A stretch of DNA of 64,000 nucleotides from Akkermansiaceae bacterium (GCA_026461385.1 JAPJNB010000043.1:4718-68717), one strand, 5' to 3'. Numbered from the stretch's first letter, positions 16,601-44,221 are shown. The notes: generated by a model not told the origin, from the letters alone. Numbers and translations are program-made.

Positions 16601-16732
16601 CGCGATGTCGGTGATGGCGATGGCTTCGCAACCGATTTCCGCCGCTCGCTGGACCATCGATTCGGGCTGGCTTGCGCCTAACAGAAATGAAAAAGCCGAG
16701 TGTGCGTGCAACTCACAAAAAGTTTTTTTCAC
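13607..16732 (-). CDS. dnaE2: Error-prone DNA polymerase III alpha subunit DnaE2
   Basis: PHP start ELHAHSAFSFLLGAS; GRGSAANS, PDIDIDF, HLGQHSGG, GTFQVESRAQM, YGFPESHA; C-terminal OB fold and ARSHDFH tail. A GTG start at 16732 overlaps the imuB TGA (GTGA), so it is preferred to 16852. Confidence 0.95.
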   Translation of the reverse strand: MKKTFCELHAHSAFSFLLGASQPESMVQRAAEIGCEAIAITDIAGFYGSARAHHAAQRCGIRALVGSTITLADQTRIPVLCASREGYRMLSRHLTDFHLMPDAAHDFFPLEGQLIALTGDRDGPLCRRLLASDRTGALHAAQRLIHVFGQANVYVEIHRHGLRDDGRLNRELIDLASHLRLPLLASNAPLHATRSDRRLADAFACLRHRVPLDRAGRLLSPNGERHLKSPHEMSTLFADLPESIRNTRRLAERIGFTLENLDYRFPDFPDGHGHPLSLAEQSTLLRRHAYAGASRRYGICSSKVRAQLEHELAMVHRLGFPGYFLIVHDLVEFARGRGILCQGRGSAANSVVCYALGITSVDPVGGGLLFERFLSENRRSWPDIDIDFPSGDRREEVIQHVFRKYGTRNAAMTANVITYRPKSAFREMSKVLGFPPSVAERFSASPSSFGGDGSKTRDHEAEFEERVSGILPPSHPRLPALTHLYHAVLGIPRHLGQHSGGMIVCDHGLDAVVPLQPATMAGRCVVQWDKDDCEDMGIVKIDLLGLGMLASLEYALEIRSRRGHPLDLATIPKNDPAVFEMLCRADTIGTFQVESRAQMATLPVMRPQTFYDIAIQVAIIRPGPIVGDLVHPYLNRRNGREKIDFIHPACEEILRRTLGVPLFQEQVLRMAMAVAGFSGAEADELRRAMAFKRSDDRMENVTTKLRHGMTERGVSKEVQEKIIASIGSFALYGFPESHAISFALIAYASCWFKVHHPAEFYAGLINHQPMGFYSVNTLMQDAKRHGIRIKPVSCLFSEVLTEVEDDQTLRLGLHRIKGVSAETLHRITEERRKEPFSSLENFLTRTRPSANEKRMLAKAGALNGMPEIQHRRDALWQIELPLHDDLLIPCRSGYRSVLPPMSAGERLTADFTTQGASVGTHPMALWRDACGSSNVLRSNDLKNLPHGVPVTIAGMVICRQRPGTAKGHCFISLEDETGIANLFVPKTTFHRLRRVISSEPFLWIEGILQRSEGDQPTVYVIHVQELDGIEPEHAARSHDFH

Positions 16733-18207: not shown

Positions 18208-18212
18208 CGGAG

Positions 18213-18848
18213 TTAGGTGGCGCGGCGGAGTTGGTCCGACGAAGCTTGAACGCGTGGGAGCAGCTCCGCTTGGGCGCGGTCGAAGTCCGCCAGTGAAAGC
18301 CCTGCGGAGAGCGAAACCCTGAGGCTCGCGCAGGGGACCAGCGGGGAGGTGGCGAGCACCACCAAGCGCCGTCCAGAGCGCTCGACCGCTTGTTTCATCC
18401 GCCACCACGCGGCGGCGGGGAGCGCGTTGAGATCCTGCCGTTTGACACCGGTAGAATCTAACAGAACAAAGGGCATGTTGCCATCATGCACGAGCAAGTC
18501 TGCCGCCTTGAGCATTTCGAGAGCAGACTTGCAGCGAATCCACACCAATTTCGAGCAGGCATCGCCCGGGAAGGAATTGGGGTCAAAGGCATCCGCGCCA
18601 TCGATCAGCACCAACTGTGGCAGGGAATTGGCCGCCTCGGACTCGTCTAGCAGGCCGGCCATGAACAAGGCGAGGCCTGCGCTTGGCCCAGCGGGCAGGA
18701 CTTCCGAAATGGCGCCGATGGGGAAGGAGTCGGCCGAAAATGGTTTCTCTAACAACGGGCTGGGCGCGGGGTTTGGGCGCAGTCCATGCGCTTGCGGGAA
18801 TTGATCACGCAGTTGCTGACGTAAGATTTCTACTGCCGAGGCCGCCAT
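18213..18848 (-). CDS. imuA: ImuA-like RecA-fold protein
   Basis: GAISEV, LVLIDGADAFDP, LVWIRC and FVLLD RecA-like segments without a Walker A motif. First gene of the imuA-imuB-dnaE2 cassette. Confidence 0.75.
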   Translation of the reverse strand: MAASAVEILRQQLRDQFPQAHGLRPNPAPSPLLEKPFSADSFPIGAISEVLPAGPSAGLALFMAGLLDESEAANSLPQLVLIDGADAFDPNSFPGDACSKLVWIRCKSALEMLKAADLLVHDGNMPFVLLDSTGVKRQDLNALPAAAWWRMKQAVERSGRRLVVLATSPLVPCASLRVSLSAGLSLADFDRAQAELLPRVQASSDQLRRAT

Positions 18849-19635: not shown

Positions 19636-19824
19636 CTGTCAGGAAGTCACCAAGCGCTGTCGGTGACTCACTTGGAGCTGTCAGGGCATTCCTAGCCGTT
19701 GTCAGCCAATTCCCAGAAGCTGTCAGGGCATTCCCAGACGCTGTCAGTCAATTCCCACACGCTGTCAGAGACTCCCCAAGTCCTGTCAGCCCCCGACCCG
19801 TCGCGGTCAGACACATTCCCATCC
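19636..19824. repeat. Degenerate 21-bp tandem repeat, 9 units
   Basis: The core (C/T)TGTC(A/G)G recurs at 19636, 19657, 19678, 19699, 19720, 19741, 19762, 19783 and, degenerate, 19804: exact 21-bp period. Approximate consensus CTGTCAGnnnATTCCCAGnnG. Confidence 0.85.
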
Positions 19825-20078
19825 CAGGCCCTCCAATCCTCATTTCTGTCAGTTGCATCGCATTCCATCGCTGGCTCATTTTCATTAACTTAAGCCCATC
19901 ACCCCATTCGGTGGTAGCGGGAGCCCGCCGCCTCGCCCATACCGATTGGCTGCGAGCGGACAAGGCTCTCCATGCTCTGCTGGATATCGAGCGTTTTCCC
20001 GGCTCCGTGCGCCGCGTAGCCGAAAAATGATTTAACTTCGGATTTCGGGATTATTTTTCGGGGACATGGCCCGAAAGC

Positions 20079-20100
20079 AATGTGACAGGTTTGTCACATT
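20079..20100. promoter_or_regulatory. Perfect palindrome upstream of cheA (CRP-like half-sites, 8-bp spacer)
   Basis: AATGTGACA-GGTT-TGTCACATT has 9-bp perfect arms and contains TGTGA-N8-TCACA. Confidence 0.6.
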
Positions 20101-20107
20101 GGGTTAA

Positions 20108-22390
20108 TTGTTAGCTAACCGTTTTACAATGCAACCTAACCAATCTGTGATGTCCACTTCTTCTAGCGAATCGAAATACCTTCTCCAATTTGTTGAGCTG
20201 CACAGCCAGATTGGTGTGGAACTGGCTTTCGTGGGGCCGGGATCTGATGTTGGCCTCCTGCCGATCAACAGCCTTCTCATGGATTTTGAAGATGCCAACG
20301 AGTCGGACATTCCCGCAGTATTGGTAAGTGGAATTGCGATCGCCCGAGTCTGGTTGGACCATATTTTTGATCAAACCGGGCAGTTTTCAGAGGAGTTGAT
20401 TCTCAGCTTCAATGAATGGCACGGCTGGATGGCGGAGGCGCTTGCGGCATGGGAAAGGGCAGAAGCGTTACCCGCGATCCCATCGACATGGACGAATCAA
20501 GTGGCAACTGCCAGCGCGCCAGCAGAACTGTTGGAATCTGAATCTTCCGAAGTTGCTTCAGTCGTGTCGGAGGAGATTCCCGAATTTGAAGAGAAGGCGA
20601 TTGTGCTCAATCTCAAGGATGATGCGGAGCTGCTTTATGAGTTCCACGGAGAGTCGGTCGAGCTGCTTCAAGAAATTGAACAAGGCGTGCTCATCCTTGA
20701 GGAAAACCCCAGGGACTCAGCGACGATCAATTCGATTTTTCGCGCCTTCCACACCTTCAAGGGCGGGGCTGGCTTCCTTCATCTTCATGCACTGCAAGAT
20801 TTGGCGCACGATCTCGAGTCTTTGCTCGATGCCGCCCGCCAGTCAAAGTTGCAAATCACTTCGCACGTCATCGATTTGATCCTTGCGGGTTCAGACGTGC
20901 TTAAAAATTACACCAACGAGATCGGCGCACAGCTCAAAGGGGTTCACGCCGGTGAGCCGATCACGGTTCCAACCAGTCAGTTGATCTTGCGGGTTAAGGC
21001 CGTTTTGAACGGCGAGACGCCGATTTTGGCACCGAGTCCTGCAAAGCCGGCCCCTGTCGTTGCGATGGCCAAGGTCGAAGTTGCGCCGCAACTCGTGATT
21101 GAAATGGTGGTTCCCAACGTGATCGCGGCACCGGCATTGGAGCCAATGCCCACGGTGATCGCGGTGGATAAAGCACCCGCCGCAGAAGTGGCTGCCAAGC
21201 CGGTCCCTAGCAAGCGTGCCGCAGCGGTGGAGTCGAGTTCTGGCTTTATTAAACTTGAGACTTGGAAACTCGATGCACTTGTGGACTTGGTGGGTGAGCT
21301 CTTCATCGCGCAGTCGATGGTGGTTCAAGATCCGGATGTCCAGAACCTCGACAGTCGCACTTTAGCCCGCAGCCTCCGACAGCTTAGCCGCACGACCACG
21401 GAGCTTCAACGCAACGCGATGTCGCTGCGCATGGTGCCCATTCGCGGGGTTTTTCAAAAGATGACGCGTCTCGTCCGCGACATTGGTGCGGTTCAACACA
21501 AAGAAGTACAACTCATCCTCGACGGTGAAGAAACTGAGCTCGATCGAAATATCGTCGACAAACTCGGAGATCCACTGGTCCACATGATCCGCAATGCTGT
21601 CGATCATGGCCTCGAGTCGCCCAGCGATCGAACCGCCATGGGCAAGCCATCACTTGGCACCGTTCGACTCAGCGCTTCTCACCAGCGCGGGGGGATTTTG
21701 ATTCGGATTCAGGACGACGGCAAAGGGCTCGATGCTGCGAAGATTCTCGCCAAGGCCATCGAGCGTGGACTGGTCGCTCAAAATGCCGAGCTCACGGAGG
21801 CGGAAATTTTTGATCTGATTTTCATGCCCGGATTTTCCACGGCAGCAGCCGTCACCGATCTTTCTGGGCGCGGCGTTGGCATGGACGTGGTGCGCCGGAA
21901 CATCGAGGGCCTGCGTGGCAAAATCGAAATTCAATCGGCACTGGGAGCGGGCTCCACCTTCAACATTCTATTGCCTCTCACTCTCGCGATCATCGACGGT
22001 CTGATGGTCGGGGTTGGTGGCGAGCGTTACATCATACCGACCATCTCCGTTCGCGAGTCTTTCCGGCCGGCCCCAGGCATGGTCAGCACCGTCCAAGAAC
22101 GTGGCGAGCTGGTGATGGTCCGCGGCAAGCTGACTCCGGTGCTCCGTCTCGGCCAGTTCCTTGGCACGATCCCCAAAGCCAACACACCCGAAGAAGGCAT
22201 CATCGTCGTCGTCGAATCGGGCGATGCCATGCGAGCGATCCTTGTCGATGAACTGATCGGCAAACAAGAAGTGGTGATCAAGAGCCTTGGCGACACCTTC
22301 CAGCACCAGAACCTACTCGCGGGAGCCGCCGTCCTTGGCGATGGCGCGGTCGGCCTCATCCTCGATGTCGATACCATCGTGAAACTCTGA
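20108..22390 (+). CDS. cheA: Chemotaxis histidine kinase CheA
   Basis: Hpt IFRAFHTFKGGAGF, dimerisation KLDALVDLVGELFI, HATPase HMIRNAVDHG / DDGKG / FMPGFST / SGRGVGMDVV and C-terminal CheW domain. In-frame ATGs at 20129 and 20150 are likelier starts than the TTG at 20108. Confidence 0.95.
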   Translation: MLANRFTMQPNQSVMSTSSSESKYLLQFVELHSQIGVELAFVGPGSDVGLLPINSLLMDFEDANESDIPAVLVSGIAIARVWLDHIFDQTGQFSEELILSFNEWHGWMAEALAAWERAEALPAIPSTWTNQVATASAPAELLESESSEVASVVSEEIPEFEEKAIVLNLKDDAELLYEFHGESVELLQEIEQGVLILEENPRDSATINSIFRAFHTFKGGAGFLHLHALQDLAHDLESLLDAARQSKLQITSHVIDLILAGSDVLKNYTNEIGAQLKGVHAGEPITVPTSQLILRVKAVLNGETPILAPSPAKPAPVVAMAKVEVAPQLVIEMVVPNVIAAPALEPMPTVIAVDKAPAAEVAAKPVPSKRAAAVESSSGFIKLETWKLDALVDLVGELFIAQSMVVQDPDVQNLDSRTLARSLRQLSRTTTELQRNAMSLRMVPIRGVFQKMTRLVRDIGAVQHKEVQLILDGEETELDRNIVDKLGDPLVHMIRNAVDHGLESPSDRTAMGKPSLGTVRLSASHQRGGILIRIQDDGKGLDAAKILAKAIERGLVAQNAELTEAEIFDLIFMPGFSTAAAVTDLSGRGVGMDVVRRNIEGLRGKIEIQSALGAGSTFNILLPLTLAIIDGLMVGVGGERYIIPTISVRESFRPAPGMVSTVQERGELVMVRGKLTPVLRLGQFLGTIPKANTPEEGIIVVVESGDAMRAILVDELIGKQEVVIKSLGDTFQHQNLLAGAAVLGDGAVGLILDVDTIVKL

Positions 22391-22432
22391 CCCACCGAAA
22401 CAAGCGCCTGCCGACAAATTTAATACTTACTG

Positions 22433-22969
22433 ATGAGCACGACACCACCATCCACCGCTGAAACCAAAAGCAAAACCGGCCGCTATCTAACATTTAGACT
22501 TGGCCAAGAGACCTACGGTCTGCCGGTTCTGAATGTCCGGGAAATCATTCGCATCTGCCCGATCACCCCGGTACCTAAAATGCCGACCCATATTAAAGGA
22601 GTGATCAACCTGCGTGGCACCGTGATCGCGGTGTTAGACCTTCGGGCGAAGTTCGATCTTTCCAAGGCGGATTTCGGCGACCGCGCCTGCATCATCGTGG
22701 TTCAACTCACGGCACCAGACGGTCGCAAAAATCTGATTGGCGCGATGGTCGATGCGGTGGAAGAAGTGATCCAACTCAATGAGGAAAGCATCGAGCCCGC
22801 GCCTGACTTTGGAGGGTCCCAAGAAACCCAATACATCCTCGGTGTGACCACTGGCCAAGACGGCGTGAAGACCCTCTTGGACATCAATAAGATTTTCACG
22901 GATGACTTCTCCGCGACCCGCCCGCTGGCCGAAGGGGCGGCAAATCATCAGAGCGAAGCGCTCAGCTAA
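22433..22969 (+). CDS. cheW: CheW coupling protein
   Basis: YLTFRLGQETYGLPVLNVREII, ITPVP, GVINLRGTVI and VDAVEEV. Confidence 0.95.
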   Translation: MSTTPPSTAETKSKTGRYLTFRLGQETYGLPVLNVREIIRICPITPVPKMPTHIKGVINLRGTVIAVLDLRAKFDLSKADFGDRACIIVVQLTAPDGRKNLIGAMVDAVEEVIQLNEESIEPAPDFGGSQETQYILGVTTGQDGVKTLLDINKIFTDDFSATRPLAEGAANHQSEALS

Positions 22970-23040
22970 ATTTCTGCCTATAGCGAAACTAAATTTTTTA
23001 AGAAACGACACGCAAAACCATATTATACCATCGAATCAAT

Positions 23041-24711
23041 ATGAAAAACTGGACTATATCACGCCGCATTATTACCGGCTTCACTGTTATCGTGCTCATC
23101 GCGACCCTCATGGGATCCTATGCCTTGTATCGGATCACCGGCCTCTCTAAAGAAATTCTCAACCTAGGTGAAAATTCGATACCGAGTATCGTATTGCTAA
23201 CCACGGTCGATCGAGAAATCAGTGCCACGATGCTTCATCTGGAGCAAATGGAGGGAGAGAATAATCCCAAGGCCATCGCTGAATTTAAGGAAAGTTTGCC
23301 CAAACATAAGGCCACGATCGGCGAGCTCATTAAAAAATATGATGGGCTGATTTCTGATGCCAAGGATCGTAGTCTATTTGATGAGGTCATCAAATACGAG
23401 CGGTTATACTTCCCCGCGTATGAACATTCCTATGAACTTCTCGCTAGCGGTAAAAGTGATGAGCATGACAAAGCACAGGCGGAAGATGTCATCCCGACTT
23501 ACCGCAAGATGATGACGGCCCTTGAGGAAGATGCCCAATATAACGAAACTCTGGCGAATCAGGCATCTTCTAAAGGTAAGGCGGATGCTACATCTTCGAC
23601 CTATATCGTTGGCATCATCTTGGCCGCCACGGTTCTGTTCGCGACGTTCTTTGCATGGCTGGTCTCCAGCAGCACCAAAAAGGCATTGCAAACCTTGGCC
23701 AGCAATCTCGCTCAAGGCGCGTTGCAAACCGCAGCGGCTGCCCGTCAGGTTTCGATGGCGAGCAACCAACTTTCCTCTGGCTCTAGCGAGCAGGCATCTT
23801 CCGTCGAGGAGACCAGCACCTCACTGGAAGAGATGTCGAGCATGATCCGTGCAACCGCAGAAAACGCGCAAAAAGCCAAGTCGCTTGCGACTGAGGCTCG
23901 TGCGGAAGCGCAGGCGGGTAGCCAAACGATGGGCGAAATGATGGAGGCCATGACCGCGATCAACACCTCGAGTGCCGAGGTTGCGAAAATTGTCAAAAAC
24001 ATCGATGAAATCGCCTTCCAAACCAACATCCTCGCGCTCAACGCAGCGGTCGAGGCCGCGCGTGCGGGTGAGGCAGGTGCTGGCTTTGCGGTGGTGGCCG
24101 ACGAGGTCCGCTCCCTCGCGCAGCGAAGTGCCGCTGCCGCCAAGGAAACGGCGGAGAAGATTGAAGCGGCCATCGCTAACAGCCGCAATGGTTCCCTGTG
24201 CTCCACCAAGGTCGGTGAGTCACTCAAGCAGATCACCGAAAAGGTCAGCGCGACGGATGCCCTCGTGGCGGACATCGCGGCGGCCGCCTCCGAACAATCC
24301 CAAGGCATCCAACAAATCAACAATGCGATGGCGCAGATGGACAAGGTGACGCAGGGAAATGCTGCCAGCTCAGAAGAGAGCGCGAGTGCGGCCGAAGAAC
24401 TGGATGCCCAGGCGGAGACGATGAAGGACTTGGTCGGTCAACTTCGCGAACTCGTGGAAGGCAAGTCCAAGGGTGGATCTGCAACGAATCATGGCCAATA
24501 TCAATCCGCTGGCGCTCAGGAGAATTACCGCACCAAAGCGGTTTTCACTGGAGCTTATAACGGTGGTGGACGTCGTCCGATTCCAATGCCAGAGGACGGT
24601 GACTATCGCAGCCGTCCCGCCATCGCGAATAGCGGCCCACGGCTGATACCGATGCCGGACGACAATCATTCCACGGGTGCTAACGACGACAGCAACTTTC
24701 GGAATTTCTAA
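23041..24711 (+). CDS. Methyl-accepting chemotaxis protein with a periplasmic 4HB sensor domain and a C-terminal pentapeptide
   Basis: Two TM segments flank a helical periplasmic domain; hairpin tip [43 protein letters not shown]; ends DDSNFRNF. Confidence 0.95.
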
Positions 24712-24729
24712 TCCGAGAATCATTGCTAG

Positions 24730-25590
24730 ATGTTCGACTCTCAACCCATCAAGGATTTCAGAGATGCTACCATCTCTGCAGATGCTTACCGAATCATTGT
24801 CGAGTTGGTCTACGAGCATAGTAGAATCAAACTCGGCAATGACAAGCAGACCTTGTTGTCTAACCGCCTCGGCAAAAGGTTAAGGCATCTTGGGCTGAAC
24901 TCATACGATGAGTATGGTGTCCTGCTGCGTTCGCATGGGGCGAGTGAGGAGCTGGAGCATTTGGTAGACCTCATTTCCACCAACCACACCCGTTTCTACC
25001 GAGAGCCAGATCACTTTACTTTTCTGACCAGTCGGATCTTGCCGCCGCTGATTCCACAGCTCGCGGAAGTGGGCGAACCGCTGCGGGTATGGTCCGCGGC
25101 GTCTTCGTCAGGCGAGGAACCCTATACCTTAGCCATCGTCCTTGCCGAGTATCTGAGGATTCACCCAAGCATCAAATGGCAAATTGAGGCATCTGACATC
25201 TCGAACAAAATGATCGATCAGGCACGGCGTGGGATCTATCGGATGGATGTGGTCGAGCCGGTGCCCCAGGTGTTGTTGGAGCGCTATTTTCAGAAAGGGG
25301 TGGGCGAGCAACATGGCAACTGCCGTGTTCGTGAGGAGTTGAGGCAAAAAGTCCGCTACGACCGCGTGAATTTGTTTCAGCCAGAATATCCAGTAGCACG
25401 CAAGCAACATGTAATATTTTGCCGGAATGTGATGATCTATTTCGATATTCCATCGCGTGAGCTGGCAGTGAAGAAGTTATCTCAGTATCTAGCACCCGGC
25501 GGCTACCTCATCGTGGGACATTCGGAGAGTCTGATGGGTATTAAACATGGATTGGAATCGGTACGGCAGGGAGTTTATCGAAAGCCATGA
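24730..25590 (+). CDS. cheR: CheR methyltransferase
   Basis: STNHTRFYREPDHF, LRVWSAASSSGEEPYT, ASDIS, IFCRNVMIYF and LIVGHSESL. Confidence 0.95.
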   Translation: MFDSQPIKDFRDATISADAYRIIVELVYEHSRIKLGNDKQTLLSNRLGKRLRHLGLNSYDEYGVLLRSHGASEELEHLVDLISTNHTRFYREPDHFTFLTSRILPPLIPQLAEVGEPLRVWSAASSSGEEPYTLAIVLAEYLRIHPSIKWQIEASDISNKMIDQARRGIYRMDVVEPVPQVLLERYFQKGVGEQHGNCRVREELRQKVRYDRVNLFQPEYPVARKQHVIFCRNVMIYFDIPSRELAVKKLSQYLAPGGYLIVGHSESLMGIKHGLESVRQGVYRKP

Positions 25591-26645
25591 TGCTAGGAGG
25601 TCGAAAAATCAGGGTGCTGGTGGTGGACGACTCGGCGCTTGCGCGTCGGGCCATCACCGACGCTTTGGCGCGCGACCACGAGATCGAGGTGATTGGGGGT
25701 GCAGCCGATGCCTATCAGGCCCGCGAGAAAATTTTAGAGTTAGAGCCAGACGTCGTTACGTTGGATCTGGAGATGCCGCGGATGGACGGGCTCACCTTTC
25801 TGAAGATTTTGCAGGAGCATCATCCAGTTCCAGTCGTGGTGATTAGTTCTCTTACCCAGGCAGGTTCTGCCAAAGCGATGGATGCGCTGAATGCAGGGGC
25901 GATCGATGTGATCGGGAAACCCGACGGCAGTCGAAGTTTAGTACAAATGGGGCATGTCCTTGCGTATCATGTGAAGGCGGCTGCTCGTTCTCGCCCAAAG
26001 CCTCGCATTGCTAAAACCGAGCCCGCACCGAAATCTCCATTCCCAACTGCCTTTCCGGCGGGGAAATTTTCCCCACGCCAGTTGATTGTGATCGGCTCGT
26101 CTACGGGCGGCGTGGAGGCGCTGCGCTATATTTTGCCACGCCTTCCTGCGGGCCTGCCGCCCATCGTGGTGGTTCAACATATCCCCGCGAATTTTTCGAG
26201 AATCATGGCTCATCATCTCGATGAGCTCTGCTCATTTCAGGTTCGTGAAGCGCGTGATGGTGAGGAGTTGCGTGCCGGCACCTGCCTCATTGCGCCAGGG
26301 GATTTTCACGTCACGCTGGTTTCTAATGGAATGGGCTACCGGGTGAGGCTCGTGCAGTCGCCACCGGTTCACCATTGTCGGCCGGCGGTTGATATCCTCT
26401 TTCGCTCAGCAGCACAGTATGCTGGATCCCACGCGGTAGCCGCGTTGTTGACGGGCATGGGTGTCGATGGTGCAGCAGGTTTGAAAGCGCTCCAAATGTC
26501 TGGTGCTAAAACATTCGCAGAAGCCGAAGAGAGCTGTATCGTCTTCGGCATGCCGCAAGCCGCCATCAAACTCGGTGCTGCAGATCATGTGGTCCCACTT
26601 CCTCAAATGCCTCAGTCCATTCTTAAGGCCATCACCACCAAATAG
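25587..26645 (+). CDS. cheB: CheB response regulator-methylesterase
   Basis: REC domain (VLVVDDS, TLDLEMP) plus esterase triad motifs IGSSTGG, VQHIP and LTGMGVDG. Confidence 0.95.
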   Translation: MMLGGRKIRVLVVDDSALARRAITDALARDHEIEVIGGAADAYQAREKILELEPDVVTLDLEMPRMDGLTFLKILQEHHPVPVVVISSLTQAGSAKAMDALNAGAIDVIGKPDGSRSLVQMGHVLAYHVKAAARSRPKPRIAKTEPAPKSPFPTAFPAGKFSPRQLIVIGSSTGGVEALRYILPRLPAGLPPIVVVQHIPANFSRIMAHHLDELCSFQVREARDGEELRAGTCLIAPGDFHVTLVSNGMGYRVRLVQSPPVHHCRPAVDILFRSAAQYAGSHAVAALLTGMGVDGAAGLKALQMSGAKTFAEAEESCIVFGMPQAAIKLGAADHVVPLPQMPQSILKAITTK

Positions 26646-26648
26646 CCG

Positions 26649-27122
26649 ATGACGATTTCAAACCATCTATCGAATGAGCTCAGTCAAACTGCGGCCAACG
26701 CCATATCTGAGGTTTTTTCAACCCAACTGAAGCTCTATCCTGAAGAATCCTCCCTGGCGATGGAATCGAGTGCATTGCATCATTCGTCCGTTACCATCAT
26801 CGGAGAGCGCATGGAGGCTTCAGTTTTGTTGCAATTTTCAGAAGTGTTCGCTGCGCGGGCTACGGAATTAATGATTGGCGGCGAGTGCGAGGAGGATGAC
26901 ATCAAGGATGTGACCGGTGAGCTTTGCAATATGGTCGCTGGCAGGGTGAAGGCGGGGCTTGCGGCTGTCGGATTTGTTGGAACCCTCGCGACACCGATCG
27001 TGACCAGCGGCCCTTTCATCAAACTACGGAAAATGGCAGGCTCTGAATTTTGTGAAAATAACTGGTCCTGCGAAGGTCATGCAATCAATCTCCAAGTACT
27101 CCTACGGATTCTACCATCATGA
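26649..27122 (+). CDS. cheX: CheX-family phosphatase
   Basis: DVTGELCNMVAG (ExxN motif) and ATPIVTSG. Confidence 0.8.
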   Translation: MTISNHLSNELSQTAANAISEVFSTQLKLYPEESSLAMESSALHHSSVTIIGERMEASVLLQFSEVFAARATELMIGGECEEDDIKDVTGELCNMVAGRVKAGLAAVGFVGTLATPIVTSGPFIKLRKMAGSEFCENNWSCEGHAINLQVLLRILPS

Positions 27123-27505
27123 TCCCTAAAATTCTGACTGTTGACGACAGTAGAGCGATTCGCATGGTGCTTAAGCGGCTCTTCCGGCCATTTGCCTGTG
27201 AACTATTTGAGGCCGGTGATGGTGAGGAAGGTCTTGCCGTAGCAACCAACGAAAAACCCGACCTGATCATCCTCGATTACAACATGCCAGTGATGGATGG
27301 CGTGGCGATGCTGCGCCAGATGAGAGAGAACCCCGAGCTTAAGCGAACACCGGTGATCATGCTTACGGCGGATGCGAGTAGCGAGATCATCAATACGGTG
27401 GCCCGCCTCGGAGTAAGAGATTACGTCACCAAGCCATTCGATGATGCACAGCTTCTGGATAAAGTATCTCGAGTCATTGCGCTGAATCGCATTGAAGAGG
27501 CTTGA
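27119..27505 (+). CDS. Single-domain response regulator (CheY-like)
   Basis: ILTVDDS, LIILDYNMPVMDG (phospho-Asp), LTAD and YVTKPF. Confidence 0.9.
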   Translation: MIPKILTVDDSRAIRMVLKRLFRPFACELFEAGDGEEGLAVATNEKPDLIILDYNMPVMDGVAMLRQMRENPELKRTPVIMLTADASSEIINTVARLGVRDYVTKPFDDAQLLDKVSRVIALNRIEEA

Positions 27506-27545
27506 TCGTTTCCTCCTAAAATCGAATTCTTTCCACGAAAAAATC

Positions 27546-28706
27546 ATGAACGAGATCATTCCACAAGTGCCCAACCCAGATGGGGCAGTTCTTCCCCAGC
27601 AAGTCGCCAGTACCCTGAAAAAAGCGGATGTCCTTGTGGTAGACGATAGCCGCATGATGCGTGCGGCACTAGGCCGCTCGTTAAGGGAACTGGGATTTAG
27701 CAATATCTCGGAAGCCGTAGATGGTGCCGATGCAGTCAACAAACTCCTCGAAAAACCTTATGATTTGATGCTGCTGGACATGGAAATGCCCGTCATGAAC
27801 GGGATGGAAGTGCTGGCCGCGATGCGACTCGACTCGAGGCTTAGTGGAGTCCCCGTGATCGTCATTTCAGCCGCCGATCAAATCGAGAAGGCCGTCCAGT
27901 GCATTGAGGCGGGAGCTGAAGATTATCTTCCTAAGCCACCTGCACTTACCTTGCTGCGGGCGCGGGTGACCACGGCACTGGAGAAAAAGCGTCTGCGTGA
28001 TCTCGAACGTCTCCGCTTCGCTCAGTTGCAGGCAGAAAAGGAATTGGTAGAGCTCGAAAAGGAAAAATCAGAAAAATTGCTGCTGAATATTCTTCCTGGC
28101 GCAATTGCTGGACGTCTGAAAAGCGGCGAAAAAACCATTGCTAACGGTCATGCCACAGTTTCGGTCATGTTTGCAGATCTCTGCGGTTTCACGGCTCTCT
28201 CGCGTAAGACGAATCCCGCTCAATTGGTTGAAATGCTGAATGGTATTTTCACGGCCTTCGACCTGATTGTCGAAAAGCACGGGGTAGAAAAAATTAAGAC
28301 CATCGGTGATTGCTATATGATGGTGGGGGGGCTCCCAACCCATCGCGATGACCATGCCCAAGTGGTGGCAGATGCGGCCCTTGAAATGGTGCAGGCCCTC
28401 GACCGACTCAATCAAATCAATGGGACTGATTTAAAAATGCGTGTTGGCATTCATACCGGACCGGTGGTGGCGGGCGTCATTGGGAAGATTAAATTTACCT
28501 ACGATCTCTGGGGAGATACCGTCAATGTTGCAAGTCGGATGGAATCATCGGGCTTGCCCGGAATGGTGCATCTTTCCGAGCAGACACAGGAAGCGCTCAA
28601 AGGTAAATTCATGTTGGAAGAAAGGGGATTTGTCGAATGCAAGGGTCTTGGCCAAGTTAAAACTTTTTTCCTGAAAGGTCGTGAGGGTCAGGTGATACCT
28701 GTCTAG
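27546..28706 (+). CDS. Response regulator-class III adenylate cyclase fusion
   Basis: REC (VLVVDDS, LLDMEMP, DYLPKP), coiled coil SEKLLLNILP, then cyclase with FADLCGFT, EKIKTIGDCY and YDLWGDTVNVASRMES. Likely start ATG 27546; the ORF track gives 27492. Confidence 0.92.
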   Translation: MNEIIPQVPNPDGAVLPQQVASTLKKADVLVVDDSRMMRAALGRSLRELGFSNISEAVDGADAVNKLLEKPYDLMLLDMEMPVMNGMEVLAAMRLDSRLSGVPVIVISAADQIEKAVQCIEAGAEDYLPKPPALTLLRARVTTALEKKRLRDLERLRFAQLQAEKELVELEKEKSEKLLLNILPGAIAGRLKSGEKTIANGHATVSVMFADLCGFTALSRKTNPAQLVEMLNGIFTAFDLIVEKHGVEKIKTIGDCYMMVGGLPTHRDDHAQVVADAALEMVQALDRLNQINGTDLKMRVGIHTGPVVAGVIGKIKFTYDLWGDTVNVASRMESSGLPGMVHLSEQTQEALKGKFMLEERGFVECKGLGQVKTFFLKGREGQVIPV

Positions 28707-28754
28707 TAGCGAGAGGTCCCATGCTAGATAATTGAAGAACCTGAAAGGACAGCT

Positions 28755-29633
28755 ATGAATACTGGAACTACTATGATTGAGTCATCGACTGCAGTGCTCC
28801 GGTTTTGGGGGGTTCGGGGATCAATTCCGACGCCGGGCCCGTCTACGCTGCGCTATGGCGGAAACACGACTTGCGTCGAATTGCGCATTGGAAGCGAAAT
28901 TGTCGTCATTGATGCGGGGTCGGGTATCCGCGCGCTGGGTGGCTCGCTCGTCCGGGAATTCGGAGCAAAGCCGATCTCGTTGAGTGTATTGATCACACAT
29001 ACGCATTGGGATCATATCCAAGGCTTCCCTTTCTTCATCCCTGCGTTCGGCAAGAACAATCGGATCCGAGTCATTGGCCCGCAATCTGAGCCCGATGGCT
29101 TAAAGGGAGTATTTGAAAAACAGATGGATGGGAGCCGTTGCTTCCCCGTCACCTTGGGAATGATGTCGGCTCAAATCAGCTTCGACCATCTCGATAAAGA
29201 TCAAGGTATCCAGTTTGAGATTGGAGACGTCAAGGTTACGTCTTGCCCGACCAATCATCCAGGTGGCTGTCTAGCATATCGTTTTGAGACGCCTGCTGGC
29301 GGAATCGCCTTCCTCTCAGATCATGAGACAGGCGGCGATGACGAATTGCGGATTCTTGAATTCATCAAAGACGCTAAAATTCTTATTGCAGATGCTCAGT
29401 ATGATGCGTCTGAAATGGTGGCGCGCAAGGGCTGGGGACATGGTTGTACCGACGATGTGGTCTCATTGGCCATGAAGGCAGGTGCCGAACAGCTCTATCT
29501 CTTCCACCATGATCCCACGCATGATGATGCCTTTATCGATGGCATGTTGGAACATGCCAAAGGATTGGTTTGCCAATTTGGATCGCTTCTTCAAGTTCAG
29601 GCTGCGGCAGAGGGCTGTGAAATCAGCATTTAA
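28755..29633 (+). CDS. MBL-fold metallo-hydrolase (RNase Z/phosphodiesterase-like); putative cyclic nucleotide phosphodiesterase
   Basis: WGVRGSIPTPG, YGGNTTCVE, THTHWDHIQG (HxHxDH), NHPG, SDHE and LFHHDP. The PDE role is inferred from context only. Confidence 0.75.
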   Translation: MNTGTTMIESSTAVLRFWGVRGSIPTPGPSTLRYGGNTTCVELRIGSEIVVIDAGSGIRALGGSLVREFGAKPISLSVLITHTHWDHIQGFPFFIPAFGKNNRIRVIGPQSEPDGLKGVFEKQMDGSRCFPVTLGMMSAQISFDHLDKDQGIQFEIGDVKVTSCPTNHPGGCLAYRFETPAGGIAFLSDHETGGDDELRILEFIKDAKILIADAQYDASEMVARKGWGHGCTDDVVSLAMKAGAEQLYLFHHDPTHDDAFIDGMLEHAKGLVCQFGSLLQVQAAAEGCEISI

Positions 29634-29709
29634 TTCTTGAGACCACTTCATGCTTCAAACAAGTCAAAGTCAGTGGCAGGCTCGAACAATTTTCTAAGAT
29701 GACATACTC

Positions 29710-31884
29710 ATGAGGCAAAGCACGATCGATTTTATTTTCTTGTGGTCGAACTACAATAAATTTTTGCGGTCTCACGGACGTGAGTACGCCTTGATTTTGC
29801 TGGGGATTTTCAGCCAGTTAATTTTTTACATCGTCTACCCGCTGATCTTTAAGTACATTTTCGATCAAATTGTTCCAAATAAGGATTTTGATCAGCTTGT
29901 AGCATACGCCGTAGGAATTGTGATCCTGCTTGTAACTTGTGGCTTTGGTGCCTACATCCAGACGAAATACATGGCCCACGTTGGAGGGAAAATTCTCGCC
30001 GATTTGCGTTCACAAATGGTCTCCAAGTTTCACAAGCTGTCTTTTTCGTTTTACGCAGGGGTTGATTCGGTGGACCTGTTGTCACGTTTTTCAAACGATA
30101 TGGATAAAGTGGAAAACTCGCTGACGCGCGCCTTGCCATCATTGCTAGAAAGTATCCTGATTACCACGGGATGTTTGGTTGCCATTTTTTTCATTGACTG
30201 GCGTCTTGCGGTCTCAGCTGGCATTCTTATTCCTATTGGGTTTTCTGCGAATTCTATTTTAGGTCCTAGAGAAGATCGGCTAAACAGTGAGAGCCGACAG
30301 CAAAAAAATAGCATGTTAATGGTTGTGAGTGATTTTATCAATTCTTGGCTATTAATCCGAGCGTTCAATGATAAGGTCCATGTCAAAAAAAGGTTTGAAC
30401 TTTCAAATAACAGTTACACAAAGACCTCTTCCAATTACTCATACTGTAGCAATATCACGCCAGTTTTTTCGGAATATGGCGTTAACGCAAGTCTTGCGGT
30501 TATCGTGATTGTCGGGGCTGTTCTTACGATGAAGGGTGCTCTGACCGCCGGATCATTTATTGGTTGCTTTGCTCTTCTGCGTAAAGTTGCCGACGGTTCG
30601 GCAAAATCAGCAAAAAATTACACCACTTTCATTAACGCGCTCCGACCTTACAAGCGAATCCAGAAACTTTTGGCGGAGGAGGAAATTGCAGGAGATCGTC
30701 ACGATTCAGTTGAGCTATATCCATTGAAAAGCGATATTGTGTTTAAGAATGTAAGTTTTGGGTATGGCGCTGGTCAATTGGCCGTTGATCATATTAGTTT
30801 TTCAATTAAGAAAGGTAGCTCAGTTGCCATTGTTGGAACCAGTGGATCCGGGAAGAGTACCTTATTGAAACTTATCATGCGTATCGTAGAACCTAGCCAA
30901 GGCTCGATTCTTTATGATGGCATCAATTTGGACCTTGCGTCAGTTGCCTCAGTCCGTCGTCACAGCAGCATGGTGCTTCAGGAAAGTCATGTTTTACGAG
31001 GGACAATCGCTGAAAACATTCGTTACGGTGCGGACGGGATAGGCGATGAGAGACTTTATCATGCTGCTGAGAGGGCAGGAATTCACGATTTCATCACTCA
31101 ACTTCCACTCGGTTATGAAACTGTTATCAATGATCGAGGGAGTTCTCTCTCGGGCGGCCAACGGCAACGCATTGCGATCGCAAGGGCCTTCGCTCACGAG
31201 CCACCTTTGCTTTTCTTGGATGAGCCTACTTCAATGCTTGATCCCATCAATGAAGCGGCGATCAATGAGACTTTCTTGAAGCTCACCGGTGGGAGAACGG
31301 TCATCCTCGTAAGCCATCGCCTCGCCACTTCGAGGGATTTTGATAAGATCTTGGTTCTCCATAAAGGAAAACTCATTGAGGAGGGGAATCACCATGAACT
31401 CATGGCGATGGATGGGTTTTACCGCACGATGTGGGATAAGCAAAATGGATTTATGATCAGTGCTGAAGGCAACGCTAAAATCACGCCAGAGCGACTTCGA
31501 TTGATCCCTATTTTCTCGAATCTTGAGTTGCAGGTTCTCTCGGATCTAGCAGGCCAATTTGATACCGAGGCTTTCGAGGCGGGGGTGAGGATTATTCAAG
31601 AAGGCGCAAAAGGTGACAAATTTTACATCGCTGTCCGCGGTAACCTGAGAGTTCTCAAGAAGAATGCTGATGGGGGTGAGGTCGAACTTGCAGTTCTAAG
31701 CGATGGAGACCATTTCGGAGAAATTGCGCTGATGAAGTCTGTTGCGCGCACGGCGTCAATTGAGACGCTATCGCATACGAGCTGCCTTAGCCTAAGTCGC
31801 GAGCGATTCAATCGCTTGGTGGAGACTCAGCCTGAACTTTTCAAGGCACTTACGGAGGCCATGGCCGCCCGCTTCACGGCATGA
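29710..31884 (+). CDS. ABC exporter (TMD-NBD) with a C-terminal cyclic-nucleotide-binding domain
   Basis: N-terminal TM helices; Walker A GTSGSGKST, signature LSGGQRQR, Walker B LFLDEPTS, H-loop SHRL; C-terminal cNMP domain IIQEGAKGDKFY...FGEIALMKSVARTASI. Confidence 0.9.
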   Translation: MRQSTIDFIFLWSNYNKFLRSHGREYALILLGIFSQLIFYIVYPLIFKYIFDQIVPNKDFDQLVAYAVGIVILLVTCGFGAYIQTKYMAHVGGKILADLRSQMVSKFHKLSFSFYAGVDSVDLLSRFSNDMDKVENSLTRALPSLLESILITTGCLVAIFFIDWRLAVSAGILIPIGFSANSILGPREDRLNSESRQQKNSMLMVVSDFINSWLLIRAFNDKVHVKKRFELSNNSYTKTSSNYSYCSNITPVFSEYGVNASLAVIVIVGAVLTMKGALTAGSFIGCFALLRKVADGSAKSAKNYTTFINALRPYKRIQKLLAEEEIAGDRHDSVELYPLKSDIVFKNVSFGYGAGQLAVDHISFSIKKGSSVAIVGTSGSGKSTLLKLIMRIVEPSQGSILYDGINLDLASVASVRRHSSMVLQESHVLRGTIAENIRYGADGIGDERLYHAAERAGIHDFITQLPLGYETVINDRGSSLSGGQRQRIAIARAFAHEPPLLFLDEPTSMLDPINEAAINETFLKLTGGRTVILVSHRLATSRDFDKILVLHKGKLIEEGNHHELMAMDGFYRTMWDKQNGFMISAEGNAKITPERLRLIPIFSNLELQVLSDLAGQFDTEAFEAGVRIIQEGAKGDKFYIAVRGNLRVLKKNADGGEVELAVLSDGDHFGEIALMKSVARTASIETLSHTSCLSLSRERFNRLVETQPELFKALTEAMAARFTA

Positions 31885-32266
31885 GGTCCGGCAGTGATTC
31901 GGTGGGGGTGCCTCGGAGCTGGCTCATTTGACGGACTCGGTTCACGAGTACGGTCATCACATGCTTCGCGAAGAAAGGATTGTTCTGAATGATGAAATTG
32001 AAGCGCCTTTCATCGACCTTCGCGAGGCGGCAGGGCTCAGCTGCGATTACCGTTGCTGCCCGAGGTGAGTTATCGATGAGTGCCATTTCTCCTAGCAAGG
32101 AACCGCTGGTGGAACGTTCAACCACTTCTTGGTTGACGATAATATCTGCGGAGCCTTCGAGCAGTACATACATGCAATCCCCGGGTTCACCTTGAGTGAA
32201 AAGAACCTCGCCTGGAGCTAGGTTTGTCGTGTCGGTATCGTGTTTAAAGAGATTGGCAGGGTTCAT
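31874..32266 (-). CDS. Stand-alone cyclic-nucleotide-binding domain protein (no HTH)
   Basis: Likely start ATG 32266 (MNPANLF). LFTQGEPGDCMYVLLEG and LGEMALIDNSPRAATV phosphate-binding cassette; ends soon after the C-helix. Convergent with the ABC gene and overlaps it by 11 bp. Confidence 0.85.
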   Translation of the reverse strand: MNPANLFKHDTDTTNLAPGEVLFTQGEPGDCMYVLLEGSADIIVNQEVVERSTSGSLLGEMALIDNSPRAATVIAAEPCRLAKVDERRFNFIIQNNPFFAKHVMTVLVNRVRQMSQLRGTPTESLPDLMP

Positions 32267-32409
32267 GGATTTATGGTTAGGGGCAGGCGGATACTCGGCA
32301 AGGTTTTTTTCGGATGAGGCAATGGTTCCGATCGGTGCGGTGACCGGGCGGCATTGCGGGAATCCCATCAAGAATCATTGGTGATGCAAATTGCCGAGAA
32401 GGGCATACC

Positions 32410-33453
32410 TCACCTGCCGCGAGCGGGTCCGGTGCTTTCGCGCAGGATCAATTGGCTTGCGAGCACCTTCTCGCGCGGACCTTCTTTGGTTTTCCCCTCG
32501 ATCCGATCAAAGAGCATCTCCACGGCGTATTGGCTGATCTCATCAATCGGTTGGGCGATCGACGTGAGGCTGGGATTCAGTAACGGGCAAAGTGAGATGT
32601 CATCCACGCCGATGACCGAAAGGTCGCGTGGCACTTGCAAGCCGACATCGTGCGCTCCGCGCAAGGCCCCGATGCCGCAGAGGTCGTTCAATCCGATCAC
32701 CGCGGTCGGCGGGTTGCCTTTCCGGCTGTCAATCAGGCGGTGGAATGCTTCTTTTGCGCCGGCCATCGTGTGATCCGAAGGCTCCACGTATAAATCCTTT
32801 TCGTCGAATCCAAGATTGCGGGCTATGTTGAGAAATATTTCTTGGCGGCCGTTATCCGCCTGATTTTCTGCGAGTGCTCGGATGAAACCTACGCGTGAGT
32901 GGCCTGTGCGGCGCAGATAGGAAAGTGCCTGACCGAGGCCGCCCTCGAAGTCCACGGTGATTAGGTCAACGGGTAGCGGCCTAGCTCCCCGCTGGCCGGC
33001 CACCACCATGGGGATGCCGTATTTGATGTGGCTTTTCAGGAAGTCCGCATGAACCGGCGGATCGATCAAGCAGGCAATGATGCCGTCCACTTGGCGGTCC
33101 ATGATGCTTTCCAGGCATTTCATTTCGCGAAGCAAATCGACTCGGCTGTGTTCGATGATAAGGTCGTAGCCGCGGGCTTCTGCCGCAAGCTCGAGCTGAT
33201 CTGCTAGACTCATGAAGAATGGATTGTTCAGGTCAGGCACGATCAGTCCAATCGTGTCGAACCTACGCTTCTTGACTGCCAATGCGATCCGGTTAGGCCG
33301 ATATCCAAGGCGTTTCGCTTCTTCCAGCACTCGAGCGCGGGTTGCTTCTGATGCCCAGCAATTCGGGCGATCATTGAGCACCATGGAAGCCGTATTGGTG
33401 GCGACTCCCGCCGCCTTCGCGACATCCACGAGCCTAGGTCGTTTTACGTCCAT
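32410..33453 (-). CDS. LacI-family transcriptional regulator
   Basis: Likely start ATG 33453 (MDVKRPRLVDVAKAAGVATNTASMVLN). LGYRPN, IGLIVPDLNNPFF, VPRDLSVIGVDD and LTSIAQP. The ORF track extends it to 33558. Confidence 0.92.
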   Translation of the reverse strand: MDVKRPRLVDVAKAAGVATNTASMVLNDRPNCWASEATRARVLEEAKRLGYRPNRIALAVKKRRFDTIGLIVPDLNNPFFMSLADQLELAAEARGYDLIIEHSRVDLLREMKCLESIMDRQVDGIIACLIDPPVHADFLKSHIKYGIPMVVAGQRGARPLPVDLITVDFEGGLGQALSYLRRTGHSRVGFIRALAENQADNGRQEIFLNIARNLGFDEKDLYVEPSDHTMAGAKEAFHRLIDSRKGNPPTAVIGLNDLCGIGALRGAHDVGLQVPRDLSVIGVDDISLCPLLNPSLTSIAQPIDEISQYAVEMLFDRIEGKTKEGPREKVLASQLILRESTGPARGR

Positions 33454-33627
33454 TGGTCCGTTTTCCGCTACCGAGCGTTTCATGCCCGGCGCTGATTTTT
33501 TTCCGGAGTTGTCCATGCGTGAAAGAGATAAGCTGCTGTTTGTTTCAATTTTCAACACAATTTCTCGCTAGGAGAAATATCCCATCAGGAGGGAGGCAAA
33601 GACCGAAGGGGTAATTTTCTGCCTCAT

Positions 33628-34031: not shown

Positions 34032-34772
34032 ATGATCCCGAATATGAATATTAAGATTCTGACTCTTGCTGTAACCACCGTTGCCGCATTTTCACTCGTG
34101 CTCCAATCCGCCCACGCTGCTGTTTACTGGAACGGCAGCGTCAGCAGTGATTGGGCAGAAACGTCCAATTGGTCGGGCGGCCTGCCATCCACATCAGGTG
34201 CGGGCGATGCCATCATCAACCCCGGCTCACCCAATGTAAAACCAGTGATCAGCACCCCAGTGGCTGCCACCGTTGGGCAGACATACGTGTCCATTGGTGC
34301 GGGCTTGCAGGTTACCACGGGCGGAAGCTTGACCACCGTTAGTTTGATCACGGGGATCTGGGGCCATAGCGACGTCGTCGACGTCTCGGGGGGGAGCCTG
34401 ACTATCTCAAATAACTTGCTGCTGGGCTACTCTGGTTATGACGGAAAGATGAACATCTCCGGCGGCACGGTGACCGCCAACAATTTATCCATCAACATGG
34501 GTGGCGGAGCCAAGATGAACCTCGGCGGTTCGGGTGCCTTCATTGCGCCGGTCAGTAACCTCGGAAATATCAACTACTGGATCGCCAATAATGCCATCAT
34601 CGCGGGCAACGGTGCATCTGGATGGTCGGTCAACGTTGACACCACGAGCAATGCAGGCAACGTCGTTCTAACCGCAGTGCCGGAACCTTCGGTTTCCCTG
34701 CTGGCGGTTGGCGGAGCTTTGGGATGCTGTTTCCTGAGGTCGCGCCGGAAGAGCGCTTCCTTCCAGGATTGA
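34032..34772 (+). CDS. PEP-CTERM surface protein with a ~190-aa beta-rich domain
   Basis: Signal peptide ending SAHA; C-terminal VPEPS, a hydrophobic helix and basic RSRRK. Confidence 0.9.
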   Translation: MIPNMNIKILTLAVTTVAAFSLVLQSAHAAVYWNGSVSSDWAETSNWSGGLPSTSGAGDAIINPGSPNVKPVISTPVAATVGQTYVSIGAGLQVTTGGSLTTVSLITGIWGHSDVVDVSGGSLTISNNLLLGYSGYDGKMNISGGTVTANNLSINMGGGAKMNLGGSGAFIAPVSNLGNINYWIANNAIIAGNGASGWSVNVDTTSNAGNVVLTAVPEPSVSLLAVGGALGCCFLRSRRKSASFQD

Positions 34773-34836
34773 AATCAGCGATTTTCGACCCGCATCGAGT
34801 CCGCCCCACATCCCGAACGCTCGCTTTAACAACAAG

Positions 34837-39804: not shown

Positions 39805-39871
39805 CCCATCAGCGGATGCACTCATCGATTCGTTTTCCCGGGGCGGGCGTAGGCCTCGGCCACTCAATTTC

Positions 39872-44120: not shown

Positions 44121-44195
44121 CCACTGGCCCGGAGCCTTACGAACCGCATTTGACGAGGCGAATCCCGCGGAAAAGCTGGCGGATGAAAATTCTTC

Positions 44196-44221
44196 TTGAC
44201 CCTTATATGAAATGATTCATG
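44196..44221 (+). promoter_or_regulatory. Promoter/operator copy 2
   Basis: TTGACC-N5-ATGAAATGATTCATG. Confidence 0.7.

Follow-up and report, generated by a model that had tools for sequence, protein, structure and literature searches.

A chemosensory locus with a receiver-fused adenylate cyclase in an Akkermansiaceae bacterium, and its conservation across three phyla

Among bacterial sensors, chemosensory arrays are the most sophisticated: they respond with high gain and they adapt. To our knowledge, their outputs other than motility are few: cyclic di-GMP (c-di-GMP) in the Wsp system, gene expression or development, and, indirectly, cyclic AMP (cAMP) in the Pil-Chp system. In Pil-Chp of Pseudomonas aeruginosa, the cyclase CyaB is unlinked, membrane-bound and without a receiver, and its activation runs indirectly via PilG and partners and is tied to type IV pili. 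Class III cyclases fused to a receiver domain (REC) are also known, cyanobacterial CyaC with its receiver-linker-catalytic build among them; those that we know of use classical or intramolecular histidine kinases, and we know of none for which a role as CheA-array output has been demonstrated. Here, we describe a locus in a 64,000-nucleotide stretch from an Akkermansiaceae bacterium (GCA_026461385.1, JAPJNB010000043.1:4718-68717; the window hereafter, with positions counted from its first base) in which a set of che genes is followed by genes for a REC-fused cyclase (the REC-cyclase), a metallo-beta-lactamase (MBL)-fold hydrolase and an ATP-binding cassette (ABC) protein with a cyclic-nucleotide-binding (cNMP) domain. 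The locus resembles Wsp of Pseudomonas in that a full Che core feeds a response regulator predicted to make a nucleotide messenger, and in that the adaptation enzymes are kept; it resembles Pil-Chp in that chemosensory activity would set cellular cAMP. We show that the system is real, conserved and uncharacterised in the open-access literature, and we consider it likely that it constitutes a chemosensory pathway with cAMP output, rather than or besides a motor. The genes, with the Pfam or NCBIfam matches by which they were recognised, are as follows.

20108-22390 (TTG opening the reading frame; the ATG at 20129 is the likely start), + strand: cheA (Pfam Hpt, H-kinase_dim, HATPase_c, CheW)
22433-22969, + strand: cheW coupling protein (Pfam CheW, 127.5 bits)
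23041-24711, + strand: methyl-accepting chemotaxis protein (MCP) chemoreceptor (Pfam 4HB_MCP_1 and MCPsignal)
24730-25590, + strand: cheR methyltransferase (Pfam CheR_N and CheR; NCBIfam CheR, 213 bits)
25587-26645, + strand: cheB methylesterase with N-terminal receiver (Pfam Response_reg and CheB_methylest)
26649-27122, + strand: cheX-family phosphatase for phospho-receivers (Pfam CheX, PF13690)
27119-27505, + strand: single-domain CheY-like REC protein (Pfam Response_reg, 100.5 bits)
27492-28706 (from TTG; likely start ATG 27546), + strand: REC-cyclase (Pfam receiver and Guanylate_cyc, PF00211)
28755-29633, + strand: MBL-fold hydrolase (Pfam Lactamase_B_2, PF12706, 63.8 bits)
29710-31884, + strand: ABC protein with cNMP domain (Pfam ABC_membrane, ABC_tran and cNMP_binding)
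31874-32371, - strand: stand-alone 165-aa cNMP protein (Pfam cNMP_binding, 72.4 bits)

A first-pass annotation of the window had proposed this gene order, these domains and their tight co-orientation, and searches of its open reading frames (ORFs) against Pfam and NCBIfam recovered all eleven genes where it had placed them. From cheA to the ABC gene, successive genes on the + strand are separated by 42, 71, 18, -4, 3, -4, 40, 48 and 76 bp; the 40-bp gap between the small REC gene and the REC-cyclase is counted from the ATG, which orthologue alignments favour as the start, and becomes -14 bp from the TTG. The 165-aa cNMP gene is convergent with the ABC gene, and their 3' ends overlap by 11 bp. 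The arrangement lies far outside what chance would give, as dozens of independent contigs from metagenomes and metagenome-assembled genomes (MAGs) carry it as a unit. The annotation had also held that flagellar and pilus motor genes are absent; none was found among the other large ORFs of the 64-kb window, where two proteins carry a prepilin-type N_methyl motif alone. By its composition and its nearest relatives, the window belongs to a freshwater member of the Verrucomicrobiota.

Linkage between the che genes and the REC-cyclase was examined from both ends. In a cyclase-seeded survey, one genome per species was scanned, yielding 78 loci onto which all window proteins were mapped; loci with a full-length orthologue (51-94% identity) were taken as orthologous REC-cyclase loci, and che genes were scored within 10 kb. 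Che genes were present in 30/34 orthologous loci, distributed over Verrucomicrobiota, Planctomycetota and Burkholderiaceae, the four exceptions being a contig of 3.5 kb and three loci (L025, L031 and L033) with no che genes beside the cyclase. At control loci matching the catalytic domain only (in Leptospira, cyanobacteria, Bacteroidota and others) or the receiver only, che genes were found in 0 of 43. The gene order in Verrucomicrobiota (Chthoniobacterales, Terrimicrobiaceae, 'Spartobacteria' and Opitutae) is cheA-cheW-mcp(1-3)-cheR-cheB-cheX-REC-REC-cyclase, in a Burkholderiaceae MAG (L029) it is cheA-cheW-mcp-cheR-cheB-REC-cyclase, and in Planctomycetota the REC-cyclase is convergent with cheA-cheW-mcp-cheR-cheB. 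Flanking genes vary between loci, indicating that it is the block itself, and not its neighbourhood, that is conserved. A receiver-domain profile search further showed that in five Planctomycete loci and in L029 the sole receivers within 10 kb are those of CheB and the cyclase, which leaves the cyclase as the only candidate output of the array there.

A second survey, seeded with CheA in Joint Genome Institute (JGI) metagenomes, was run against ascertainment bias. Fourteen orthologous che loci (CheA 56-94% identical) extend past the small REC gene, and 10 of these hold an orthologous REC-cyclase in the next position, followed downstream by the MBL gene in all ten and by the ABC-cNMP gene as well in seven. 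Among the 14 loci we also found one in which the small REC is fused to the cyclase to give REC-REC-cyclase (L113, 9148-10908), two with a REC-PP2C (SpoIIE) protein in the same place (L101, ~11341; L107, ~20748) and one with a REC-HisKA-HATPase-REC-REC-Hpt hybrid kinase, followed by a REC-PP2C and an anti-sigma-type kinase (L109, 17201-21900). An enzyme-type response regulator, be it cyclase, PP2C or hybrid kinase, thus always occupies the slot after cheX-REC. Since orthologous che cores carry differing enzyme outputs there, this position is a modular output slot, which in this clade usually holds the cyclase. Overall, the first-pass annotation had made its proposal depend on the cyclase, MBL and ABC genes being conserved with the che genes, and the neighbourhood survey it called for did not refute it in either search direction, with che genes and cyclase linked in 30/34 and 10/14 loci and in related lake bacteria of three phyla. 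Those of its predictions that lend themselves to computation all held.

REC-PP2C genes also occur downstream of the ABC gene in four loci (L002, L030, L086 and L120). In L002, the receiver and linker of the REC-PP2C protein are 50-53% identical to the cyclase receiver, compared with ~35% to the small REC, which suggests that the REC-PP2C and the REC-cyclase might share one upstream kinase. Clustering had pointed to a 'second cyclase' after the ABC gene in L002 and L030; this candidate was rejected, the gene encoding REC-SpoIIE instead.

The REC-cyclase itself joins a CheY-like receiver at aa 47-159, via a coiled-coil/cyclase-transducer linker, to a class IIIa catalytic domain at aa 219-396. 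It is the most conserved protein of the block, with 76-78% identity between Verrucomicrobia and Planctomycetes (for comparison, CheB 57%, CheR 52% and CheW 51%). The best structural relatives of the receiver are CheY proteins (E ~1e-21), its best NCBIfam model is also CheY, and its acidic pair (D51, D52), phospho-acceptor (D96), S126 and K148 are kept in 30-33 of 33 sequences. Best PDB matches place the catalytic domain nearest the mammalian transmembrane adenylyl cyclases and Rv1625c, and it aligns with both the C1 and the C2 halves of AC8 and AC5. The metal-binding aspartates (D229, D273), the adenine-specifying Lys/Asp pair (K269, D338) and the transition-state residues (N345, R349) are all present, these six catalytic residues being conserved in 30-33/33 sequences. 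A single chain supplies all six, which is the signature of a homodimer, and by its residues the enzyme is predicted to be a homodimeric, ATP-specific class IIIa cyclase. The segment LLLNILPGAIAGRLK, located before the catalytic domain, aligns to the helical segment found ahead of the catalytic domains in AC5 and AC8, and we take it to be a cyclase-transducer element.

Upstream of the cyclase, the sensory core is complete. The Pfam matches of CheA and CheW exceed their cut-offs. CheA carries an Hpt (P1) domain with the phospho-histidine motif HTFKGG, then a Pro/Ala-rich linker and the dimerisation, ATPase and CheW-like domains, and NCBIfam CheA scores 419.8 bits across the kinase core; Pfam detected no P2 domain, and the N-terminal ~170-180 aa gave no Pfam match. 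CheB is recognised by NCBIfam at 402.6 bits, over the cut-off. The receptor has a periplasmic 4-helix-bundle sensor and two transmembrane segments and lacks a HAMP domain between the second of these and the bundle. Its signalling domain retains the EE/EQ methylation pairs and can be aligned to residues 267-516 of E. coli Tsr with no gap, which places it in the 36-heptad (36H) class. The receptor ends in a long disordered tail (window 24577-24711, aa 513-556), on which two IPMP[ED]D motifs are followed by NFRNF as the C-terminal pentapeptide. An xFxxF pentapeptide is conserved at the C-terminus of in-cluster receptors from three phyla (DFRNF, SFKKF, NFTKF, NFRSF and HFKDF), preceded by 15-20 residues in Verrucomicrobia and Planctomycetes by an IPMP[DEGN]D motif; the Burkholderiaceae receptor of L029 keeps the pentapeptide and lacks the IPMP motif, and upstream paralogous receptors have neither. 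The pentapeptide resembles the NWETF-type tether for CheR and CheB of E. coli-like receptors, and its conservation argues for functional adaptation.

CheX scores 43.7 bits against a cut-off of 27 (PF13690) and shows the ExxN motif in its translation (GELCNMVAG); its likeness to Thermotoga CheX is weak (26 bits). The cheX gene adjoins REC in all Verrucomicrobial loci, and we propose that the small REC protein serves as a phosphate sink, a shuttle or a second output. Taken together, the Che core looks E. coli/F7-like, with its 36H receptor and pentapeptide, while the swappable enzyme output is as expected of 'alternative cellular function' systems.

The MBL-fold hydrolase carries the metal motif THTHWDH (aa 81-87), in which H82, H84, D86 and H87 are invariant among 30 homologues. 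Sequence searches gave weak matches to RNase Z, PhnP and BA1088; a profile search placed BA1088 first, with RNase Z and PhnP close behind. An AlphaFold (AF2) model built with 30 homologues (predicted local distance difference test, pLDDT, 89) had BA1088 and Bacillus subtilis YhfI as its top Foldseek matches (E ~1e-14, template-modelling score 0.68-0.83), with RNase Z and the PhnP family close behind and Apyc1 further down. The signature [T/S]HxHxDH defines the atypical class-II phosphodiesterases (Rv1339, Corynebacterium glutamicum CpdA and YhfI; PF12706), of which Rv1339 acts on both cAMP and cGMP as a hydrolase and reduces the cAMP level in vivo (PMC9293780); CpdA of the same group likewise lowers cAMP in vivo, and YhfI favours cAMP and cGMP over cCMP and cUMP (PMC9117128). 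The motif THTHWDH fits this signature, and the fold and the PF12706 match agree with the group as well. In every Verrucomicrobial locus long enough to show it, L019 excepted, the MBL gene is found downstream of the cyclase. In L029, the cyclase is instead followed by a class-I 3',5'-cyclic-nucleotide phosphodiesterase (PF00233 above cut-off, HDxxHxG) and then a small cNMP protein, so that a non-homologous phosphodiesterase in the place of the MBL gene gives independent support for its role. Judged from motif, model and context, the MBL enzyme probably degrades cAMP as an atypical class-II phosphodiesterase; this assignment is the least secure of the components.

The family to which the MBL protein belongs is very large, and its homologues are labelled 'phosphoribosyl 1,2-cyclic phosphodiesterase' by JGI. 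Many of those ~50% identical carry an N-terminal receiver (REC-MBL, 430-470 aa; Chthoniobacterales and other Verrucomicrobia). These REC-MBL proteins constitute an undescribed class of response regulator, and such fusions indicate that the MBL enzyme serves as a signalling output. In the one REC-MBL locus inspected (L083, 8001-9329), no cyclase is nearby. PF23023, annotated on some MBL homologues, gave no match in a Pfam scan of the protein P0005. In Terrimicrobiaceae, small genes between cyclase and MBL were considered as signalling genes and rejected, as they are rplM-rpsI. Copies of rplM-rpsI (ribosomal proteins L13 and S9) lie on both sides of the MBL gene in L006 (11644-14500) and L003 (7182-9630), which suggests local duplication or insertion around it.

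Two cNMP proteins close the locus. The ABC protein is an MsbA/ABCB-like half-transporter, with transmembrane domain (TMD) and nucleotide-binding domain (NBD) followed by a C-terminal cNMP domain. Its Walker A, signature and Walker B-Glu motifs are conserved across the family (59-62 of 62 members), as is the cassette FGEIAL...ARTAS of the cNMP domain (G/E in 62/62, RTA in 59/62). The best NCBIfam match is MsbA, at a score under its cut-off, and the protein is therefore not an MsbA orthologue. The TMD-NBD-cNMP family spans dozens of clusters at 50-62% identity, including Rhodoferax; more distant members occur in Firmicutes and Deltaproteobacteria. At least 13 related loci carry the ABC gene after MBL. 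Where it is lacking, other membrane proteins with a cNMP domain sit beside the block: a GYGD K+ channel in L013 and L034, an MscS-type channel in the Planctomycetes L010, L018 and L021, and SulP-STAS-cNMP and ZIP-like-cNMP proteins in L079-82, while a tandem-cNMP protein is found in Polaromonas. The ABC exporter is thus one of several interchangeable cNMP-fused membrane effectors and not a fixed part of the system, and the recurring theme, as far as domain content indicates, appears to be control of membrane transport through cAMP-binding domains.

The stand-alone 165-aa protein has a PKA-like cassette (LGEMAL...PRAAT) and no helix-turn-helix. Its orthologues (61-68% identical) lie upstream of cheA in L002, L096, L100 and L105, and one occupies the same convergent place in L089. 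Separately, a 57%-identical ABC-cNMP exporter occurs in Rhodoferax (L084/L085, 1-22187) among phosphate-starvation (Pho-regulon) genes, namely those for PhoX, PhoD, PhoU, PstSCAB, PPK2 and a 5'-nucleotidase. It is convergent there with a partner-switching module made up of a cNMP-SpoIIE phosphatase, a STAS protein and a HATPase_c_2 kinase, and these exporter loci lack che genes.

Gene content, intact domains and catalytic residues, and cross-phylum linkage from either search direction are what the analysis shows; from these we infer a route of phosphotransfer, a sign of regulation, a phosphodiesterase activity, and the gating and substrate of an exporter. HAMP-less 36-heptad receptors would form an array with CheW and CheA, in which ligand occupancy would set CheA autophosphorylation, and CheA would pass phosphate to the CheY-like receiver of the homodimeric class IIIa cyclase. 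The coiled-coil/cyclase-transducer linker would convert receiver phosphorylation into altered, most likely raised, cAMP synthesis; by analogy with other receiver-cyclases, phosphorylation probably activates the enzyme. CheR and CheB would reset the receptor by methylation, probably tethered at the conserved xFxxF pentapeptide, in which case adaptation would make cAMP report a change of stimulus, not its level. CheX and the single-domain REC would drain or buffer phosphoryl groups, the MBL enzyme would hydrolyse cAMP and so render the signal transient, and cAMP would be read by the cNMP domain fused to the exporter and by the small stand-alone cNMP protein.

Other readings of the same genes need to be weighed. 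The locus might be an ordinary motility chemotaxis operon, in which the small REC is the flagellar-switch CheY, CheX its phosphatase and the REC-cyclase a side branch that ties taxis signals to cAMP; flagellar systems of the CheX type pair CheX with a single-domain REC in this way, and the receptor and Che core are E. coli-like (36H, pentapeptide). We regard this as unlikely, given that motor genes are lacking within 64 kb, that the orthologous Planctomycete and Burkholderiaceae clusters have no CheY and the cyclase receiver alone, that the fusion of small REC to REC-cyclase in L113 is hard to square with docking on FliM, and that a response regulator of the enzyme type is invariably found after cheX-REC. 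It might also be that adjacency does not mean wiring, so that an unlinked histidine kinase phosphorylates the cyclase and proximity to the che genes reflects co-expression or inheritance as a block. Cyclases of the same family without che genes (L025, L031, L033) and the Planctomycete cyclase, convergent with the che operon instead of inside it, speak for this. Nevertheless, the linkage holds both ways in three phyla despite varied flanks and orientations, the cyclase receiver is CheY-like, the conserved block holds no other kinase gene, and CheY-less che clusters would be left without an output, all of which makes such a reading very improbable.

As for the MBL enzyme, it could be a phosphodiesterase like RNase Z or PhnP whose substrate is RNA or another cyclic phosphate, with cAMP removed otherwise, for instance by export. 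Likeness in sequence and fold to RNase Z and PhnP almost as strong as that to YhfI, the JGI label of its homologues and the flanking rplM-rpsI in some relatives would fit such a role, whereas the position downstream of the REC-cyclase, the class-II signature, the want of an RNase Z exosite length, the receiver-fused homologues and the bona fide class-I phosphodiesterase that replaces it in L029 render this improbable as well. The proposed chemosensory pathway with cAMP output also has to contend with several observations that weigh against it. Flagellar genes are present and expressed in MAGs of related lake Chthoniobacterales (10.1101/324970), which speaks for the motility reading as well, and the small REC protein may serve a parallel motility output. 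The three receivers of the window (CheB, REC and REC-cyclase) would compete for CheA. The MBL protein and YhfI share only 17-20% identity, RNase Z and PhnP being nearly as close, and in Terrimicrobiaceae rplM-rpsI lie between cyclase and MBL, so strict co-transcription of the MBL gene is not universal. Domains of the cNMP_binding family can take other ligands, as in HetC, whose domain binds ppGpp. The ABC-cNMP gene is missing from many relatives, and in the window its G+C of 0.459 (0.48 at third codon positions, GC3) falls clearly below the 0.50-0.56 of the remaining + strand cluster genes, which could reflect later acquisition or the composition of a membrane protein. Finally, consensus scans for promoters and terminators gave no excess over shuffles, and the operon is not defined by them.

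The DNA upstream of cheA contains a perfect 10+10 bp palindrome, CAATGTGACAggttTGTCACATTG (20078-20101), 6-27 bp upstream of the cheA start, with TGTGA/TCACA half-sites 8 bp apart, compared with 6 bp in a CRP site. It occurs once in the window and may be an operator; as a conserved operator it was rejected, no copy having been found in 83 related loci. The 700-bp intergenic region that precedes cheA also holds a 21-bp tandem repeat, GCTGTCAGGGCATTCCCAGAC, in ~4.4 copies with a 42-bp super-period (19677-19768, to 19791). Directly upstream of the che locus lies an imuB-dnaE2 error-prone polymerase cassette (13607-18848, - strand), after which a 211-aa ORF without Pfam match could be imuA. A LacI-family gene on the other side (32410-33558) was considered as a member of the system and rejected, as it is not conserved with the cluster in related loci. 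Elsewhere in the window are genes for polysaccharide use, for regulators and for several large proteins that lack a Pfam match; ORFs of the latter kind (1655, 632, 790, 785 and 1155 aa) lie in 34032-46676 and 4372-7839, and a small protein with a PEP-CTERM-like C-terminus (34032-34772) adjoins such a run.

If true, a direct link from CheA to a cyclase would make cAMP one of the messengers that arrays control, and would offer a compact, portable system for studying how temporal sensing gives rise to a pulse of second messenger. A further implication would be that transport physiology is regulated by chemoreception in lake Verrucomicrobia and Planctomycetes, which are abundant and mostly uncultured. 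The analysis also gives a context-based function to three large uncharacterised families, namely the REC-cyclases, the PF12706 MBL proteins (including REC-MBL) and the TMD-NBD-cNMP ABC exporters. A wider reading, which we offer as a rather doubtful one, is that free-living freshwater bacteria possess a distinct and widespread family of adapting chemoreceptor-to-cAMP pathways, in which cAMP transients from a methylation-adapted array directly gate interchangeable transporters (ABC, K+, MscS, SulP or ZIP-like). If true, this would be a prokaryotic counterpart of signalling by receptor, cyclase, phosphodiesterase and cyclic-nucleotide-gated channel, and a post-translational 'chemo-control' of transport, not of movement. 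In its boldest version, the ABC protein would export cAMP or another signal as a cell-to-cell relay.

With respect to described systems, the first-pass annotation knew of no one-locus circuit of this kind. That judgement stands insofar as no characterised Che-to-REC-cyclase pathway was found in the open-access literature; it does not stand in full, in that one earlier listing exists. A 2012 survey of CheR-TPR clusters names 'mononucleotidyl cyclase' as one of the receiver-fused outputs and gives one instance within a che cluster, that of delta proteobacterium NaphS2, in a supplementary table and without comment (PMC3447774). No characterised TMD-NBD-cNMP exporter was found in the open-access literature. 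HetC/NHLP-type ABC exporters, with an N-terminal cNMP domain, and the bCNG (MscS-cNMP) channels are likewise transporters with a fused domain of cNMP type; the ABC protein here differs from HetC/NHLP in its C-terminal domain, its MsbA-like half-transporter build and the lack of a peptidase domain, and from HetC in particular, whose domain is the one that takes ppGpp. The atypical class-II phosphodiesterases have the MBL fold, PF12706 and the metal signature in common with the hydrolase of this locus, and none was found described inside a che locus. The REC-cyclase has the same receiver-linker-catalytic build as the REC-fused class III cyclases (Galperin's REC-cyclase response regulators) and the Rv1625c-type class IIIa enzymes. 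In contrast to Pil-Chp, the cyclase carries its own receiver and lies within the che locus, and the window has no pilus machinery genes. In contrast to Wsp, the messenger would be cAMP from a class III cyclase (the output domain is Guanylate_cyc, and GGDEF is absent from the locus), CheA is no hybrid with REC, the locus includes CheX and a single REC, its receptor belongs to the 36H class and bears a pentapeptide, and a putative degrading enzyme and candidate cAMP receptors are encoded alongside.

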